64,000 nucleotides of DNA, from the IMG/VR virus record IMGVR_UViG_3300043395_000996, positions 1 through 64,000 of that record; one strand, written 5' to 3'. The position numbers were made by a program, and so were the translations under genes. Positions 1-6,173 of the stretch are shown piece after piece. The notes below the pieces were generated by a model. It saw nothing but the letters and a program-made list of their open reading frames with translations. It was not told where the DNA came from and did not search any database. The DNA is from a virus. Positions within the stretch are counted from its first letter, which is position 1. Every line of letters starts with the position of its first letter.

Positions 1-20
1 AAAAATCCAAATACTTTTTT

Positions 21-476
21 TTAAATTTTTACTAAATGGTCTGCGCAATATGTTGCAATTGGTCCTAAAGTTTTATATCTCACTTTATATCCCATTCCTT
101 CTACCATACCAACTGCTTGCCTTAACACTTCATTTGATTTGTATCTTGGGTCTGGGTTAATATCAATATCAATCCATTTTACTTTTGGTAATCCAGCTGC
201 TTTCATTGCTTCAGCAACTTCTACTGCGTACCATACTTCATTTAACAATCTAATATTTCTTGTCCACTCTCTTTCGGTTTTCCATTTTTTATATACAACA
301 TGAGCACCTTTACCTTTATCATATAAAGCAACTACTATGGCATAAATTGTTTTATCTGAAAAGTTTTGTGAATCACAACCAATTAGTATTTCCGCATTTG
401 GTTTTTCTTTTAAGTATTCACCCACATATTCGATTAGGTCTACTTTCTTTCCATCATATAGCCGTTTGTATTCCAT
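21..476 (-). CDS. RNase H-like protein, YkuK/DUF458 family
   Basis: Motifs IGCDSQ, HVVY, RLLNEV, IDIDINP and G-Y-K..K typical of DUF458. Confidence 0.8.
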   Translation of the reverse strand: MEYKRLYDGKKVDLIEYVGEYLKEKPNAEILIGCDSQNFSDKTIYAIVVALYDKGKGAHVVYKKWKTEREWTRNIRLLNEVWYAVEVAEAMKAAGLPKVKWIDIDINPDPRYKSNEVLRQAVGMVEGMGYKVRYKTLGPIATYCADHLVKI

Positions 477-512
477 AGCCGTTTTATTTATATATTAACA
501 ATTTTGTTTTAG

Positions 513-586
513 TGTCCATAGTAGGATTCGAACCTACACAATCTGGTGTCTAAAGCCAGTGCGGTTGCCAATTACGCCATACGGAC
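513..586 (-). tRNA. tRNA-Leu(TAG), atypical short variable arm
   Basis: Acceptor GTCCGTA/TATGGAC, anticodon loop TT-TAG-AC, T-arm GTAGG-TTCGAAT-CCTAC, 5-nt variable loop. Confidence 0.8.
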
Positions 587-594
587 ATTTTCAG

Positions 595-684
595 TAGAGA
601 GTAAGAGGTTCGAACTCTTGCGCCGGTTTTATCCGACCTACCTCGTTAGCAATGAGGCCCCTTCACCAACTTGGGTAACTCTCT
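595..684 (-). tRNA. tRNA-Ser(GCT)
   Basis: Acceptor AGAGAGT/ACTCTCT, loop TT-GCT-AA, long variable arm, TTCGAAC T-loop. Confidence 0.92.
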
Positions 685-687
685 ATT

Positions 688-1341
688 TTATTTTTTTGGT
701 GTTCTTCCCAATTTCCATCCAGTAGGAACAATTCCCATCATTTTTATTTTTTTGTTTTGTTCACCATTTGTTATCCATTGAGAACCAAATTGAGAATTGT
801 ATTCTCCTTTTTGCTTTAATGAGTTAGCCAATCCTATTTTTAATTTAGTTTCTTCTTTATGTTGCTTTCCTGTCCAATTAGGTGCTGATAACTTACCTTC
901 TTTCCACAATTTAGTCAGAACATTTGACCCATTTTCTTTTAATTGTTTTGTTCTTTTTTCATTCCATTCTTTGTTGTTTTCTTTTAACCATTTTTGTCTT
1001 TGATTGGATTTTATTGCGTTTTGTTTTTGTTCCTCATTTGTAAATCCACGACCACCTTCTCCACCTACAATTAAATTCAAACATTCATTTTTAGCTATTT
1101 CATTCAAATTAACTATTTCTTTTTCTCTATTTTTTAATTCCTCCCGTGATGTACAAAATTCAATAATTTCAACAATATGATTTTCTTTACCATATTTGTT
1201 TATCGAATATCGTAATCTCTTTCCACTCCCGAGATAACCATCATTTAGATTATCAGTTGAATGCATTCCAATATAATATCTATTTGTTAATATATTGGTA
1301 GTTTTGTAAATAAAATGGTATTTTCTTTGTTTCCTTGCCAT
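688..1341 (-). mobile_element. Free-standing GIY-YIG (Seg-like) homing endonuclease with NUMOD3-type DNA-binding motif
   Basis: FIYKTTN...YYIGMH...YLGSG catalytic motif, conserved E (KEIV), C-terminal GKQHKEETKLKI motif; inserted between tRNA-His and tRNA-Ser. Confidence 0.88.
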
Positions 1342-1396
1342 ATTATATGTGTTTTATACATATAAATATAACAAAGTACAAAAAATAACCAAAGTG

Positions 1397-1468
1397 GGTG
1401 AATAATGGGATTCGAACCCATACTAACAGAACCACAATCTGTCGTGCTACCCTTACACAATAAACACC
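1397..1468 (-). tRNA. tRNA-His(GTG)
   Basis: G-1:C73, loop TT-GTG-GT, TTCGAAT; two U-U mismatches in acceptor stem. Confidence 0.85.
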
Positions 1469-1473
1469 ATATG

Positions 1474-1543
1474 TTGCGTGTATGAGGTTCGAACTCATTT
1501 GGCCATCCTTATGAGAGATAGCTATTTTCCACTAATCCACGCA
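1474..1543 (-). tRNA. Degenerate tRNA with CAT anticodon (Met or Ile2)
   Basis: Loop CT-CAT-AA, T-arm ATGAG-TTCGAAC-CTCAT, acceptor TGCGTG/CACGCA; D-arm non-canonical. Confidence 0.6.
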
Positions 1544-1548
1544 GTTTG

Positions 1549-1620
1549 AGGCAAGTATTGGAGTCGAACCAATGTAAGAGGTTTTGCAGACCTTCACCTA
1601 ACCACCTCGGCCAACCTGCC
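1549..1620 (-). tRNA. tRNA-Cys(GCA)
   Basis: Acceptor GGCAGGT/ACTTGCC, U73, loop CT-GCA-AA. Confidence 0.9.
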
Positions 1621-1626
1621 TTATTT

Positions 1627-1680
1627 TGTTCACTTTTTTTGTTTGTTCACGTTTTTGTGAACATTCTGAATTTGTGAACA
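1627..1680. repeat. Nested inverted repeat: TGTTCAC x2 followed by GTGAACA x2
   Basis: Boxes at 1627, 1644, 1657 and 1674 with symmetric 10/6/10-nt spacers. Confidence 0.85.
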
Positions 1681-1683
1681 TTG

Positions 1684-1755
1684 TAGTTCCATTAGGACTC
1701 GAACCCAAACTTCTTCATCCGTAGTGAAGGGTGCTATCCATTACACCATAGAACC
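1684..1755 (-). tRNA. tRNA-Arg(ACG)
   Basis: Stem CTTCA/TGAAG, loop CT-ACG-GA, TTCGAGT. Confidence 0.92.
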
Positions 1756-1761
1756 AATCAG

Positions 1762-1832
1762 CACGGGTAGTAGGATTCGAACCCACAACAACGGTTTTGG
1801 AGACCGGCATGATACCATTTCACTATACCCAT
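1762..1832 (-). tRNA. tRNA-Trp(CCA)
   Basis: Acceptor ATGGGTA/TACCCGT, G73, loop CT-CCA-AA. Confidence 0.9.
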
Positions 1833-1837
1833 GTATG

Positions 1838-1911
1838 TTGAAGTAGTGGGACTCGAACCTACAACCCCCGCCGTATCAGAGCGGTGCGCTAACCAATTGC
1901 GCCATACTTCA
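1838..1911 (-). tRNA. tRNA-Ile(GAT)
   Basis: Acceptor TGAAGTA/TACTTCA, loop CT-GAT-AC. Confidence 0.93.
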
Positions 1912-1916
1912 ATGTG

Positions 1917-1992
1917 TCGGAATAGCAGGATTCGAACCTGCGTGCTCTTCGTCCCAAACGAAGCGAGATAGACCGGACTCCTCTACATTCCG
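1917..1992 (-). tRNA. tRNA-Pro(TGG)
   Basis: C1-G72, A73, stem CTTCG/CGAAG, loop TT-TGG-GA. Confidence 0.93.
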
Positions 1993-2002
1993 ATAATTAA
2001 TG

Positions 2003-2075
2003 TGAACCCGTTGGGAATCGAACCCAAAACCCCTACATTAAAAGTGTAGTGCTCTACCAATTGAGCTACGAATTC
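2003..2075 (-). tRNA. tRNA-Lys(TTT)
   Basis: TAGCTCAATTGGTAGAGC D-arm, loop CT-TTT-AA. Confidence 0.93.
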
Positions 2076-2081
2076 ATATTG

Positions 2082-2155
2082 TGGAATTTGTGGAAATCGA
2101 ATCACACTCCTCTGGTTTTTCAGACCAGCGTACGCACCAGCTATACCAAAATTCC
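2082..2155 (-). tRNA. tRNA-Phe(GAA)
   Basis: Acceptor GGAATTT/AAATTCC, loop CT-GAA-AA; T-stem has a bulge and A53-U61. Confidence 0.85.
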
Positions 2156-2160
2156 GATTG

Positions 2161-2242
2161 TGCCTGCAGATGGACTCGAACCACCGAACTCAAATGAGAG
2201 CTGATTTACAGTCAGCCGCAATTGCCACTATGCGATACAGGC
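2161..2242 (-). tRNA. tRNA-Tyr(GTA)
   Basis: Loop CT-GTA-AA, long variable arm, acceptor GCCTGTA/TGCAGGC. Confidence 0.93.
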
Positions 2243-2250
2243 ATAAATTG

Positions 2251-2323
2251 TAGGAGATATAAGATTCGAACTTATGACCCCTTGGATGTAAACCAAGTGC
2301 TCTCACCGCTGAGCTAATCTCCT
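2251..2323 (-). tRNA. tRNA-Val(TAC)
   Basis: Acceptor AGGAGAT/ATCTCCT, loop TT-TAC-AT. Confidence 0.93.
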
Positions 2324-2326
2324 ATT

Positions 2327-2401
2327 TGGCGGGGATAGAAGGATTCGAACCTACAACCTACGGATTAACAGTCCGTTGCTCTACCATTGAGCTATATCCC
2401 C
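2327..2401 (-). tRNA. tRNA-Asn(GTT), CCA encoded
   Basis: Acceptor GGGGATA/TATCCCC, G73, CCA, loop CT-GTT-AA. Confidence 0.95.
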
Positions 2402-2440
2402 AAAACAAAAAACCCCCTAACTTTTTATCGTTAGAGGGTT
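2402..2440 (-). terminator. Intrinsic terminator directly upstream of the tRNA array (candidate attenuator)
   Basis: 11-bp stem AACCCUCUAAC/GUUAGGGGGUU, 8-nt loop, then UUUUGUUUU abutting tRNA-Asn. Confidence 0.85.
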
Positions 2441-2464
2441 CATGTATTACGTTGATTTTGCTTA

Positions 2465-2626
2465 TTATCCAACATCAGTATCCTCTAACTTATTAGTGCT
2501 AATATAATCCACCTTGCCTAAATTCAAGACTGCCGGATTAGCTATGGCACTAAACATACTAATCCCTGTCCACTCACATCTTTGTGTTGGCAGTTGATTG
2601 TTCGTATGTAAAGTTAAAGTTTTCAT
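2465..2626 (-). CDS. 53-aa putative leader peptide (MKTLTLH...EDTDVG)
   Basis: Second ATG of the tracked ORF; stop lies 24 nt before the terminator; last codons contain an 8-nt complement of the terminator 5' arm. Confidence 0.6.
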   Translation of the reverse strand: MKTLTLHTNNQLPTQRCEWTGISMFSAIANPAVLNLGKVDYISTNKLEDTDVG

Positions 2627-2651
2627 TGTTAATATATATCTAAAATTTAAA

Positions 2652-3736
2652 AAAAAGTAATTTGATTTCAAAATAAGCCATCCAAGTCATGCTCTGGTTA
2701 TTATCAGCCTCATCAAATTACCTTTGAGCGGTGCGAAGGTTTCGCTCCCCCTCCTCCTATCTGGAATGATAGGCGTGCTACTATTACACCAATACCGCTT
2801 ATAAAAATAAGGATGAGAATACTCCATATTGTGAACCAGCTTTCGAAAGATTATTGTTTCCTTTCTTTTCCACTTCCTTTTGAGAAGTACCAATTCAATG
2901 TGGGTTAGTTGAGCCAACCACTCTTAAAGTTTCAAACTACTCTCTTCCTACTTATTTTCTTCAACCCTGCCGAGCTGATTCACACTTGCGATGTTAGAAA
3001 CCTTTCAAAAGAATCACAGACCTCTTGCGGAGGTATCGTGGCAGGGAACAACTCCCTACTATGTACACACCTTTCATCTGAAACTGGTAAACACTTTTGC
3101 TTAATTTGATTTATAAGTTTGCACCATATAGCAAATTGAGTTTTGGTTTGTAGATGGATTCAGGTAGTGGTTTACCACAAGCTCCGTTATCTTTTGAACA
3201 ACAGAATACTATACTACCCGATGCGTTATCCCTAACGCCATACTTCAAGTCATCTTCATTAGAAGGGGTTGGTGCCCCACACTAAAGGATAGTAACGCCA
3301 CCACGCGTACACAGTCTTATCTTACGTCCTTTCGGATAGCTTGATGTTAAGACCACTTTGGTATTGAATCACGCAATAGTAAGGAGAGATTAAGTCCTTA
3401 TGTCTTACAATAATTCTATGAGTTATTCTTATTGTTGTTCCCAACTCAACTGAACAATCTACGTTTGCCCAGTCATTCCGGCTCTTCGATGATAGTGTTA
3501 CCCCCACCTACAAAGTCAGAATGATATCTCACTTGCCTACTCAAGCTCCATTTCTGAAACCGCAGAATGTTTAACCAAACATCCCACTTTATCCTACTTT
3601 CGTAGTTTATTTGACGACCATAGGCGGCCGTTGTTATACTATGTAGAACGAATCTACTATGTATAATCTTTTCAATAATTTAAAGAACTTTCCGTTTGGA
3701 TACCGAGTATCTTTCATCACCTATGAGTTCCAAACT
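2652..3736 (-). ncRNA. Large structured non-coding RNA (~1.1 kb), GOLLD-class candidate
   Basis: No credible ORF, GC higher than flanks, many hairpins incl. GNRA loops (CUAC-GAAA-GUAG, UCC-GAAA-GGA), promoter at 3742-3773, 14-bp 3' stem (2653-2666/2712-2725) plus U-tract; class assignment is inference. Confidence 0.6.
2727..2798 (-). tRNA. Non-canonical tRNA-Gly(TCC)-like element embedded in the large RNA
   Basis: G1-C72, C2-G71, G3-C70, U73 Gly identity; 8-nt anticodon loop CATTCCAG; T-loop AGCGAAA instead of TTCGAAT. Confidence 0.65.
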
Positions 3737-3741
3737 TTTAA

Positions 3742-3773
3742 CAAATATACGAAACTTTTTTCGTATTTCCTAA
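3742..3773 (-). promoter_or_regulatory. Bacteroidota-type sigma70 promoter for the large ncRNA
   Basis: TTAG-N20-TATATTTG; matches the known -33 TTTG / -7 TAnnTTTG consensus. Confidence 0.75.
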
Positions 3774-3800
3774 TCTTTTTTTATTTTTTTCAAAATGTTT

Positions 3801-3874
3801 TAGTGGTGTCCGGCTTTCTTCCCAACTGCGTTGGTCACACATTCGGTTTTATTAGATGTTGGCTTCAACCACTA
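3801..3874 (-). ncRNA. Small orphan structured RNA candidate
   Basis: Closing stem TAGTGGT/ACCACTA, internal CCAAC-GCA-GTTGG hairpin, own promoter at 3891-3922. Confidence 0.45.
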
Positions 3875-3890
3875 TCTCATTTTGTTATCA

Positions 3891-3922
3891 CAAATATACG
3901 AAAACATTTTCACATTTCCTAA
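3891..3922 (-). promoter_or_regulatory. Bacteroidota-type promoter
   Basis: TTAG-N20-TATATTTG. Confidence 0.7.
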
Positions 3923-3946
3923 TTTATTTGTAAATATTTTTTTTAG

Positions 3947-4019
<73 letters not shown>

Positions 4020-4062
4020 ATGTATTTTAAAGAACTTCTATATTGTTGTATTTATATATATA

Positions 4063-4094
4063 CAAATATACGGAAAAAAATTCAAAGTATCAAA
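4063..4094 (-). promoter_or_regulatory. Bacteroidota-type promoter upstream of tRNA-fMet
   Basis: TTTG-N20-TATATTTG. Confidence 0.75.
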
Positions 4095-5322
4095 TATATT
4101 TTATATTTTTTTTAAAAATATTTTGAAATTCGGGAATAAACATTGTATTAATTATATTTTGTTTATGTTCTATACTTTTAAATAATGCTTTATTGTATTC
4201 CAAAATTTCCAATACTTCTTTTGTGTTCCATTTTTCAGCCAACTCTTTTGCTACTGATACGATTTTATTCAACTTAATATCCACATTTTCTTCGAAATCA
4301 TAACTCTCGTCAATAATATCTCCAAAAGTTTTAAACCCCATTTGATGTAATCTATCTAAATGCCCGTTGGTTGCACTTATAACAAACGGAACTCCCATAT
4401 AAATTGGCTTCCACGTTTTTTCGGTTATATGTATTGTATCATCAAACCTATCATCATTTGTATAATCCAAAAATGTTTCAGTAACAATGTTTACTTTTGT
4501 TTTAAAGAATATATCAGTATTCAATTTATACAAATAATCATCGCTTTTTAAAATATCGTTTGTTTCTGCTAAATCATTTTCTAATACTATGGGTAATTTA
4601 TTCAATCCCATTGTATCAGCGTATTCATTTAAAGAATCATCTTTACTCAAAGCATACTTTGTATCAGATAATACTGATAAAATTGTATAAATACTTTTAT
4701 CCAATAAGCCATTATCAATTATTTCTTTGAATAATTTAAATTTATTCAATCCCAATCTTCTATTAAGAATAAGATAATCTTTTTCTTTTTCAAATTGCGT
4801 ATTAATTGGTTCTGGCAATTCAAATAATGTTGATACAAAAAAATGTGGAAAATGAAATGTATTCAAATTATAATCTCTGATTTTAACAACTTTATGCTTC
4901 ATTGAGATGCTATTGTTATAAATCATAGCTAATCTATTTTGCGAAATTTGCATTAATTTGAATTTTTCCAAAAAGAAAACCATTTCTGCGGTTATATAAA
5001 CATCCGCTTCCATCACATTATCTATTAGAAAATTAAAACCTTTTTCTGCTAAAATATGAACTATTTCAAAAAACTTTTTAGTAAATATAAATCCCTGCTT
5101 TCTATATAATGGTTTATCTATTGGTTCATTATATGAATCGGGTAGATATCTACTCCAATTAAAAATTAAAAAATTGGATTTTGATTCATCAATTGAATCA
5201 TAGTTAAATGTTTCATCTATTTCAATACGTGTAATATCATATCCCAATTTTTCCAAATCGGTAAGTACATTACTACCCTGAAATGTATAAAATACACATT
5301 TATTTAAATAACCAATTTTCAC
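4090..5322 (-). CDS. Hypothetical protein, C-terminal ITEKTWKP..PF..GF.TF..IDESYD domain (possibly GT10-like)
   Basis: 410 aa; C-terminal motif shared with 35664..36770. Confidence 0.6.
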   Translation of the reverse strand: MKIGYLNKCVFYTFQGSNVLTDLEKLGYDITRIEIDETFNYDSIDESKSNFLIFNWSRYLPDSYNEPIDKPLYRKQGFIFTKKFFEIVHILAEKGFNFLIDNVMEADVYITAEMVFFLEKFKLMQISQNRLAMIYNNSISMKHKVVKIRDYNLNTFHFPHFFVSTLFELPEPINTQFEKEKDYLILNRRLGLNKFKLFKEIIDNGLLDKSIYTILSVLSDTKYALSKDDSLNEYADTMGLNKLPIVLENDLAETNDILKSDDYLYKLNTDIFFKTKVNIVTETFLDYTNDDRFDDTIHITEKTWKPIYMGVPFVISATNGHLDRLHQMGFKTFGDIIDESYDFEENVDIKLNKIVSVAKELAEKWNTKEVLEILEYNKALFKSIEHKQNIINTMFIPEFQNIFKKNIKYI

Positions 5323-5793: not shown

Positions 5794-6173
5794 TGGTGGA
5801 GATGACGGGAATCGAACCCGTGTCCAAAAACGGAATGAATAAACCTCATTCACAAGCTTAGTTTGTTTTTCTTAACAAACAAAATAGATAAGTTTTTATA
5901 CATTTCATTATCATCAATGTTCCCCACTCTTATTTAGAGAGTCAGCGAGCCGTACTCTATTCGTTCACTTCTTTTTAAAGCCCCACGAGTGATGCGGGAG
6001 AGATTAGGCAGCTACTGCGTAATCAGCACCTACGAATGCCATAGCATCTTCGAAGGTCATTGTAGATAATTCTACTGCGTTTATTGTTCGATAGGTATTT
6101 ACGGATTTCCATCTAACCCGGCTTGCATCAATTGTACCCTTTCATCGTCTCTGTCAAATGCCAGAGCATCCCC
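5794..6173 (-). ncRNA. ssrA: tmRNA; tag (A)AVELSTMTFEDAMAFVGADYAVAA* at 6004-6078
   Basis: 5' GGGGATG...GGCATTTGAC, 3' GGTTCGATTCCCGTCATCTCCACCA, G3.U70 Ala identity, tag ends YAVAA. Confidence 0.93.

Follow-up and report, generated by a model that had tools for sequence, protein, structure and literature searches.

A probable attenuator by which a freshwater giant phage would reserve tRNA synthesis for times when ribosomes stall for want of a tRNA

The window, by which we mean the whole 64,000-nt stretch of DNA analyzed here, comes from a 180-kb virus record with 31% GC and belongs to a freshwater giant phage whose tRNA synthesis is probably reserved for times when ribosomes are stalled for want of a tRNA. 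On its minus strand, a 53-codon leader open reading frame (ORF; 2465..2626) precedes an intrinsic terminator that adjoins an array of tRNA genes, and the same leader/switch unit heads a tRNA array in about 100 related phage loci. In our judgment, the unit is quite probably a transcription attenuator, coupled to the ribosome, that checks the tRNA pool and exerts negative feedback on tRNA supply.

The leader ORF encodes all 20 amino acids, with His, Arg, Cys, Trp, Phe, and Tyr occurring once each and all three Ser codons being AGY, exactly as the original prediction had it. That prediction had also singled out conservation of the ORF as a check, and the ORF is indeed kept in homologs with its start and frame under purifying selection (dN/dS of 0.38 over 226 pairs, which are not independent). 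Among relatives, the peptide ranges from 22 to 53 amino acids in length, His7 and Trp19 occupy nearly constant positions, and searches of PHROGs and NCBIfam returned no family match. A promoter-like phage motif, ATAYWTAT, lies 13 nt before the leader ATG (2632..2639, minus strand); it stands upstream of the ATG in all 77 distinct leaders at a distance of 13 to 32 nt (13 to 14 nt in 35 of them), and a related motif precedes 23 of the 182 genes in this genome. We infer that ATAYWTAT is a phage promoter, and its position suggests that the leader is made as a dedicated, possibly near-leaderless transcript.

The leader and the region behind it contain four segments of an RNA switch, all on the minus strand. 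Segment 2, the antiterminator (2482..2489), occupies codons 46 to 49 of 53 and not the last codons of the ORF, where it had been placed, and is a perfect complement of segment 3, the 5′ arm of the terminator (2430..2441). The exact 8-nt complementarity between GTTAGAGG at 2489-2482 and CCTCTAAC at 2437-2430 was confirmed. Segment 4, the terminator 3′ arm with its U-tract (2402..2421), adjoins tRNA-Asn, so that the U-tract ends at 2402 and the tRNA starts at 2401. The hairpin (−17.4 kcal/mol) is the only convincing terminator within positions 1 to 5000; its place and U-tract agree with the original prediction, while its stem (2441-2410) comprises 12 pairs including G-U instead of 11 bp. Segment 1, the anti-antiterminator (2613..2620), lies in codons 3 to 5, pairs with segment 2 in minimum free energy folds to close the folded leader mRNA, and completes a design of mutually exclusive 1:2, 2:3, and 3:4 helices. 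The leader region folds better than all of 200 shuffled sequences (z of −4.3). Within it, an inner helix joins 2609-2604 with 2559-2554 around a hairpin (2554..2609) and thereby connects the His codon region to the Met-Phe region. This helix, a possible pause structure, is kept in 76 of the 77 leaders, persists even where the encoded residues change, and explains the invariant His codon.

Behind the terminator, the gated array (512..2401, minus strand) carries elongator tRNAs for Asn, Val, Tyr, Phe, Lys, Pro, Ile, Trp, Arg, Cys, His, Ser, and Leu. Of the 14 tRNAs thought to follow the terminator, 13 do, the contig end lying inside the array. The fourteenth, marked as an initiator-type tRNA-Met (3946..4019, minus strand) by a C1-A72 mismatch and by the three G-C pairs of its anticodon stem, lies upstream of the GOLLD RNA, ungated, and holds the same upstream position in most relatives. 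The initiator tRNA is therefore outside the gate and the elongator tRNAs are inside it. In relatives with full leaders, the arrays are mostly complete decoding sets of 21 to 25 elongator tRNAs.

Of the loci that peptide searches yielded, 16 were viral and 78 metagenomic, with more distant representatives in addition, and wherever the flanking DNA sufficed, the ORF was followed by the terminator and then by the tRNA array, nearly always with tRNA-Asn first. Covariation was analyzed on 25 four-segment haplotypes out of 81 loci. Segments 2 and 3 form 7.28 of 8 Watson-Crick pairs, compared with 6.12 (sd of 0.18) when partners were shuffled (0 of 10,000 shuffles). Three positions vary on both sides, and two positions each show five or more parallel compensatory changes; parsimony on a tree of the leader middle counted 7 and 5 changes, 7 jointly, at position 5 and 7 and 6 changes, 8 jointly, at position 6. 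This tree was used because the GOLLD tree is incongruent with the leader types. The paired changes in segment 2 replace residues of the peptide (Glu by Arg or Gly, Leu by Ser), and pairing therefore outranks residue identity. The complement named beforehand as a check was thus present in homologs and covaries with the terminator arm, and none of the sequence-level findings that would have spoken against the original prediction turned up. The 1:2 helix covaries more weakly (5.72 Watson-Crick pairs versus 5.07 in shuffles) and is broken in loci L053 and L056, while segments 3 and 4 form 7.96 of 8 pairs, the terminator hairpins of homologous loci having a median of −16.4 kcal/mol. Segment 2 matches segment 3 better than segment 4 does in 37 cases and worse in 11, which argues that it is not a mere copy of segment 4. 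In most loci it sits 19 to 25 nt before the stop codon in a fixed codon phase. Terminators with an identical sequence, retrieved without regard to the peptide, served as a control: an upstream complement of 7 to 8 nt was found for 25 of 28 such terminators that precede a tRNA versus 5 of 113 others, many of the 28 being loci already found and one of the 5 being a true leader locus.

Several divergent forms were noted as well. In L097-L099 and L122, the stop codon overlaps segment 2, and L122 looks frameshifted; in the L276/L303 family, with leaders of 22 amino acids, there are two candidate antiterminators, and the stop overlaps or precedes the antiterminator-like segment. L119 (2501-2632) and L177 have divergent leaders and another tRNA order and keep the switch with no GOLLD upstream, from which it follows that the unit is not tied to GOLLD. 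Cultured phages gave matches to tRNA or GOLLD alone and no leader, and neither this leader nor an array is present behind the GOLLD RNA of the 642-kb phage LR756502. Among GTDB genomes, the sole match with the same leader, GOLLD, and tRNA layout was a 1.6-kb binned contig, and hence no chromosomal homolog was found.

The leader keeps a broad codon roster. Among the 77 leaders found by peptide or terminator, 68 contain all 20 residues and 73 at least 19, whereas the chance of finding all 20 in genome windows of the same length is 3.5% for 53 amino acids and 0.6% for 40. Cys is always present in these long leaders, its sole copy being scattered over five columns, and Tyr shifts to position 10-11 in forms without the segment that carries it; resampling of columns gave 42% complete rosters compared with 91% observed. 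The set of 20 residues is complete ahead of segment 2 in 58 of 70 leaders. In 58 of 70, too, the final residue type to be added appears 3 to 5 codons before segment 2, which is the boundary of the modeled footprint, where the leading edge of the ribosome would start to cover segment 2. In the window, the twentieth type is Tyr41, 5 codons ahead of the antiterminator. Codons for 14 to 20 amino acids are mostly single and dispersed, without tandem runs for one to three amino acids, and all 77 ORFs contain an internal Met codon. The original prediction had linked the all-AGY serines to the array's tRNA-Ser(GCT); among relatives UCN codons are common (66 of the 77 ORFs, with AGY in all 77), and serine codon matching was rejected as a general rule, the all-AGY pattern being peculiar to the window copy. 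A preference for U-ending codons was also rejected (z of −0.9). G-ending codons are in excess across the leaders (68 versus 30 expected, over 195 site units), a count confounded by RNA helices, and the arrays carry U34 tRNAs for most boxes of these codons; the excess may sensitize the leader to wobble decoding or reflect the RNA helices only.

The content of the leader loosely follows that of the array. Loci with short leaders were retrieved blind to the peptide, through an adjacent RNA of about 70 nt, and their leaders of 14 to 18 residue types led us to reject the reading that all 20 are always present, which stemmed from the search bias of a long-peptide query. These relatives have the same architecture, with leaders of 22 to 31 amino acids and arrays that have lost tRNAs. 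In a locus-by-locus comparison, which includes some short-leader arrays truncated at the ends of loci, L342 has neither leader codons nor tRNAs for Cys, Phe, Lys, and Ser; Cys and Phe are missing from both leader and array of L322; L291 and L316 have Ile codons and tRNA-Ile, and their sisters L294 and L325 neither; and Tyr is found in both leader and array of L300 and L336 and in neither for L303. Across 18 de-duplicated loci with complete arrays, a cognate tRNA is missing for 16 of the 28 residues absent from leaders compared with 23 of the 332 present (odds ratio of 18). The match is reflected in a partner-swap p of 0.0002 and a fixed-margin p of 0.018, both of which are inflated by relatedness and overstate independence, because the loci share ancestry and recombine. 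Mismatches comprise 23 residues kept without a tRNA and 12 missing despite one, with L318 and L327 fitting poorly. Since codon loss parallels tRNA loss, the leader lists the contents of the array, and the comparison supports the rule that leader content matches array content, with all 20 residues as the full-array case.

The position of a translating ribosome was modeled by masking nucleotides −15 to +12 about the A site, at equilibrium and ignoring kinetics and the bulk of the ribosome. In this model, the probability of the antiterminator exceeds 0.9 for A-site codons 2 to 42 and is near zero for codons 44 to 53; most homologs give the same masking profile, while L104 and L097 let the 1:2 helix win in mid-ORF. 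The original prediction held that a ribosome masks the antiterminator on reaching the stop and that a stall at any codon frees it. The model retains the masking, with the last ten codons rather than the stop as its main site, and retains the release for stalls up to about codon 43, whereas stalls in the last ten codons should terminate transcription.

We propose that transcription by the host RNA polymerase begins shortly ahead of the leader ATG, with a host ribosome following. If all codons are decoded fast, the ribosome in the last ten codons would cover segment 2 during the synthesis of segments 3 and 4, the terminator would form, and transcription would halt one base before tRNA-Asn. If there is a shortage of any elongator tRNA for which the array holds a substitute, whether by cleavage, degradation, lack of charging, or under-modification, the ribosome would stall in codons 2 to 43, segment 2 would pair with segment 3, and the polymerase would enter the array; the newly made tRNAs would then relieve the stall, closing a negative feedback. 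When no ribosome is present, segment 1 could hold segment 2. We consider it reasonably likely that the leader is a pan-codon sensor of the tRNA pool, which tests each replaceable elongator tRNA, turns on the complete set only when the host pool fails, and evolves as the parts list of the array. If true, this would be a first case of leader-peptide attenuation acting on tRNA genes and, at the same time, an inducible counter-defense. Anticodon-nuclease defense or infection-driven tRNA decay would be an example of a trigger. Cleavage, decay, under-modification, and amino-acid starvation are inseparable by sequence; depletion is the likeliest use, because the available excerpts of two publications describe the cleavage or depletion of host tRNAs during infection and the rescue of translation by phage tRNAs (PMC10264068, PMC11464382).

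A sensing window as long as the modeled one would answer any stall, and the attenuator might accordingly sense overall ribosome speed or availability (antibiotics, ribosome damage, or infection stage), the variety of amino acids being incidental, in the manner of whiB7-type leaders or of toiL, which answers five antibiotic classes through stalls at different codons (PMC12121999). We regard this explanation as improbable, since Cys and Tyr move in position without being lost, the roster is completed just before segment 2, and codons are lost along with the cognate tRNA genes, but general elongation stress may be a secondary inducer.

Other RNA elements surround the switch. The conserved 3′ domain of the GOLLD RNA (2810..3221, minus strand; Rfam RF02032, 305.9 bits against a criterion of >150 bits) lies upstream and ungated, the leader being outside the match; the whole RNA probably extends from about 3690, and a search with the GOLLD DNA pattern gave no matches. 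GOLLD stands upstream of the leader in 73 of 83 loci, and 9 of the 10 others have less than 600 nt of upstream DNA. Three TAnnTTTG motifs, which we take to be the Bacteroidota housekeeping promoter element, precede tRNA-Met and GOLLD, and the probable host is a member of the Bacteroidota; this genome, which is incomplete, gave no match to Sigma70_r2. Just upstream of the leader promoter lies the unannotated conserved RNA of about 70 nt, followed by a U-run (2655..2723, minus strand), with a covarying 13-bp closing stem and no match to any Rfam family. It accompanies 33 of 88 leader loci and is therefore not required, and its U-run may end the GOLLD transcript. Its nearly invariant 17-nt core occurs in 78 IMG/VR stretches, and many of these cores adjoin tRNA genes or tmRNA in phages without the leader, which makes the RNA a candidate for a new phage noncoding RNA family. 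After GOLLD, a degenerate tRNA-Gly(TCC)-like element (2727-2799, minus strand) was missed by ARAGORN and Rfam; L005, L014, L139, and others carry an intact tRNA-Gly in its place. The array itself harbors a homing endonuclease gene (688-1341, minus strand) with its own promoter-like motif at 1369, and counterparts of a 151-amino-acid gene (21-476, minus strand) in related loci match Pfam RNaseH_like. Because such promoter-like motifs are internal to many arrays, an array may be gated only in part. Two more signs of translation takeover are a phage tmRNA upstream of the leader (5794-6173, minus strand) with a 24-residue tag and a phage bS21 gene (genome positions 122247-122396, minus strand), whose best PDB match is 7JIL, presumably the Flavobacterium johnsoniae ribosome. 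BoxA-like sites lie at 4035 and 3688 (minus strand), where they precede tRNA-fMet and GOLLD. In 51 of 82 loci, such a site also directly follows the first gated tRNA (about 150 nt past the stop in homologs), which would fit Nus-type antitermination that is loaded once attenuation has been decided.

These boxA-like sites would also suit a switch thrown by a protein or RNA factor (a phage antiterminator, a Nus/boxA complex, GOLLD, or the 70-nt RNA), or a leaky terminator that fixes the ratio of tRNA to GOLLD. In naked RNA, the 2:3 helix is favored over 1:2 by 3.0 kcal/mol before segment 4 is made, so that read-through would be possible without a ribosome, and the terminator state is ahead by 5.6 kcal/mol in the full RNA; as the energies favor different states by stage, the outcome on untranslated RNA is not predictable from sequence. 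Such a factor or leak is very unlikely in view of the fixed codon phase and distance to the stop at which segment 2 is kept in most loci and of the units without GOLLD upstream in L119 and L177, and it leaves the codon roster unaccounted for. Least probable of all is an arrest peptide or functional small protein that detects a ligand, or works in trans, through a conserved His, Trp, and Phe: it would accord with the near fixation of His7 and Trp19 and with the purifying selection, but the peptide varies more than twofold in length, its His and Met-Phe codons form an RNA helix that outlasts residue changes, it matches no family in PHROGs or NCBIfam, and its composition tracks the array.

A pan-codon sensor of the tRNA pool would bear on the long-standing question of whether large phage tRNA sets compensate for codon usage or replace depleted host tRNAs: an array switched on when its own codons decode slowly implies that the tRNAs are an on-demand replacement. 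The idea is testable codon by codon with a 230-nt reporter, and the leader might serve as a compact biosensor for tRNA-targeting defense systems in Bacteroidota.

By genome content, the phage resembles the bS21-encoding freshwater Bacteroidetes phages (bS21, 31% GC, and a tRNA array), as far as the available part of PMC9723584 describes them, and, with its GOLLD after tRNA-Met, the GOLLD RNA loci (RF02032) in the available part of PMC12286853. The leader is unmentioned in those parts of both papers, and "leader," "promoter," and "GOLLD" occur 0 times in that of PMC9723584. A rationale for inducible replacement tRNAs is supplied by counter-defense arrays: according to the excerpts available, tRNA-Lys of T5 counters PARIS (PMC11464382) and phage tRNAs evade anticodon nucleases (PMC10264068). 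No attenuator of tRNA arrays is described in these excerpts ("attenuat" occurs 0 times in that of PMC10264068), nor did searches of the open literature, with subscription journals mostly outside their coverage, find attenuation of phage tRNA arrays described. Among Rfam models, the His, Trp, Leu, Thr, and Phe leaders, T-box, and PyrR gave a best E value of 0.86, far below the cut-offs, the match of the His leader to the phage leader (E value of 2.1) also being far below its cut-off.

The whiB7/wblC leaders are general stall-sensing upstream ORFs, and to our knowledge neither they nor toiL keep a codon roster matched to their target. Stalls at many positions induce the downstream genes in both whiB7/wblC and toiL of E. 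coli topAI-yjhQ, the latter working through translational repression and Rho (PMC12121999). Both control protein genes, whereas the phage leader heads tRNA genes. Among aminoacyl-tRNA synthetase genes, those of E. coli pheST are attenuated. Attenuators have also been predicted for Streptomyces trpS and leuS (PMC1262725). Synthetase-gene attenuators share with the phage unit the feedback of decoding speed on the translation machinery but respond to one amino acid, have a protein-coding target, and are cellular.

The closest comparison is with the attenuators of amino-acid operons, such as trpL, hisL, leuL, and pheL and the multivalent leaders of thrL and ilvGMEDA. They share with the phage unit a short ORF, exclusive 1:2, 2:3, and 3:4 helices, an intrinsic terminator, and read-through on stalling, translation and switching being putative in the phage. 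Leader-peptide attenuators of that layout have been predicted before (PMC1262725). The attenuator-like anatomy of Streptomyces ilvB and leuA failed mutational tests (PMC1262725), which we counted against inferring attenuation from anatomy. The phage unit combines a conserved coding ORF, an intrinsic terminator, a covarying exclusive antiterminator, a 1:2 helix, and control codons placed for stall release, and the trp/his-type geometry originally proposed holds in its structure but not in tandem control codons. Unlike the amino-acid operon leaders, which carry codon runs for one to three amino acids, the phage leader has single codons for up to 20, places segments 1 and 2 both inside the ORF about 120 nt apart, and has as its target an array of phage tRNA genes, which would carry attenuation beyond amino-acid operons, to tRNA genes and into viruses.
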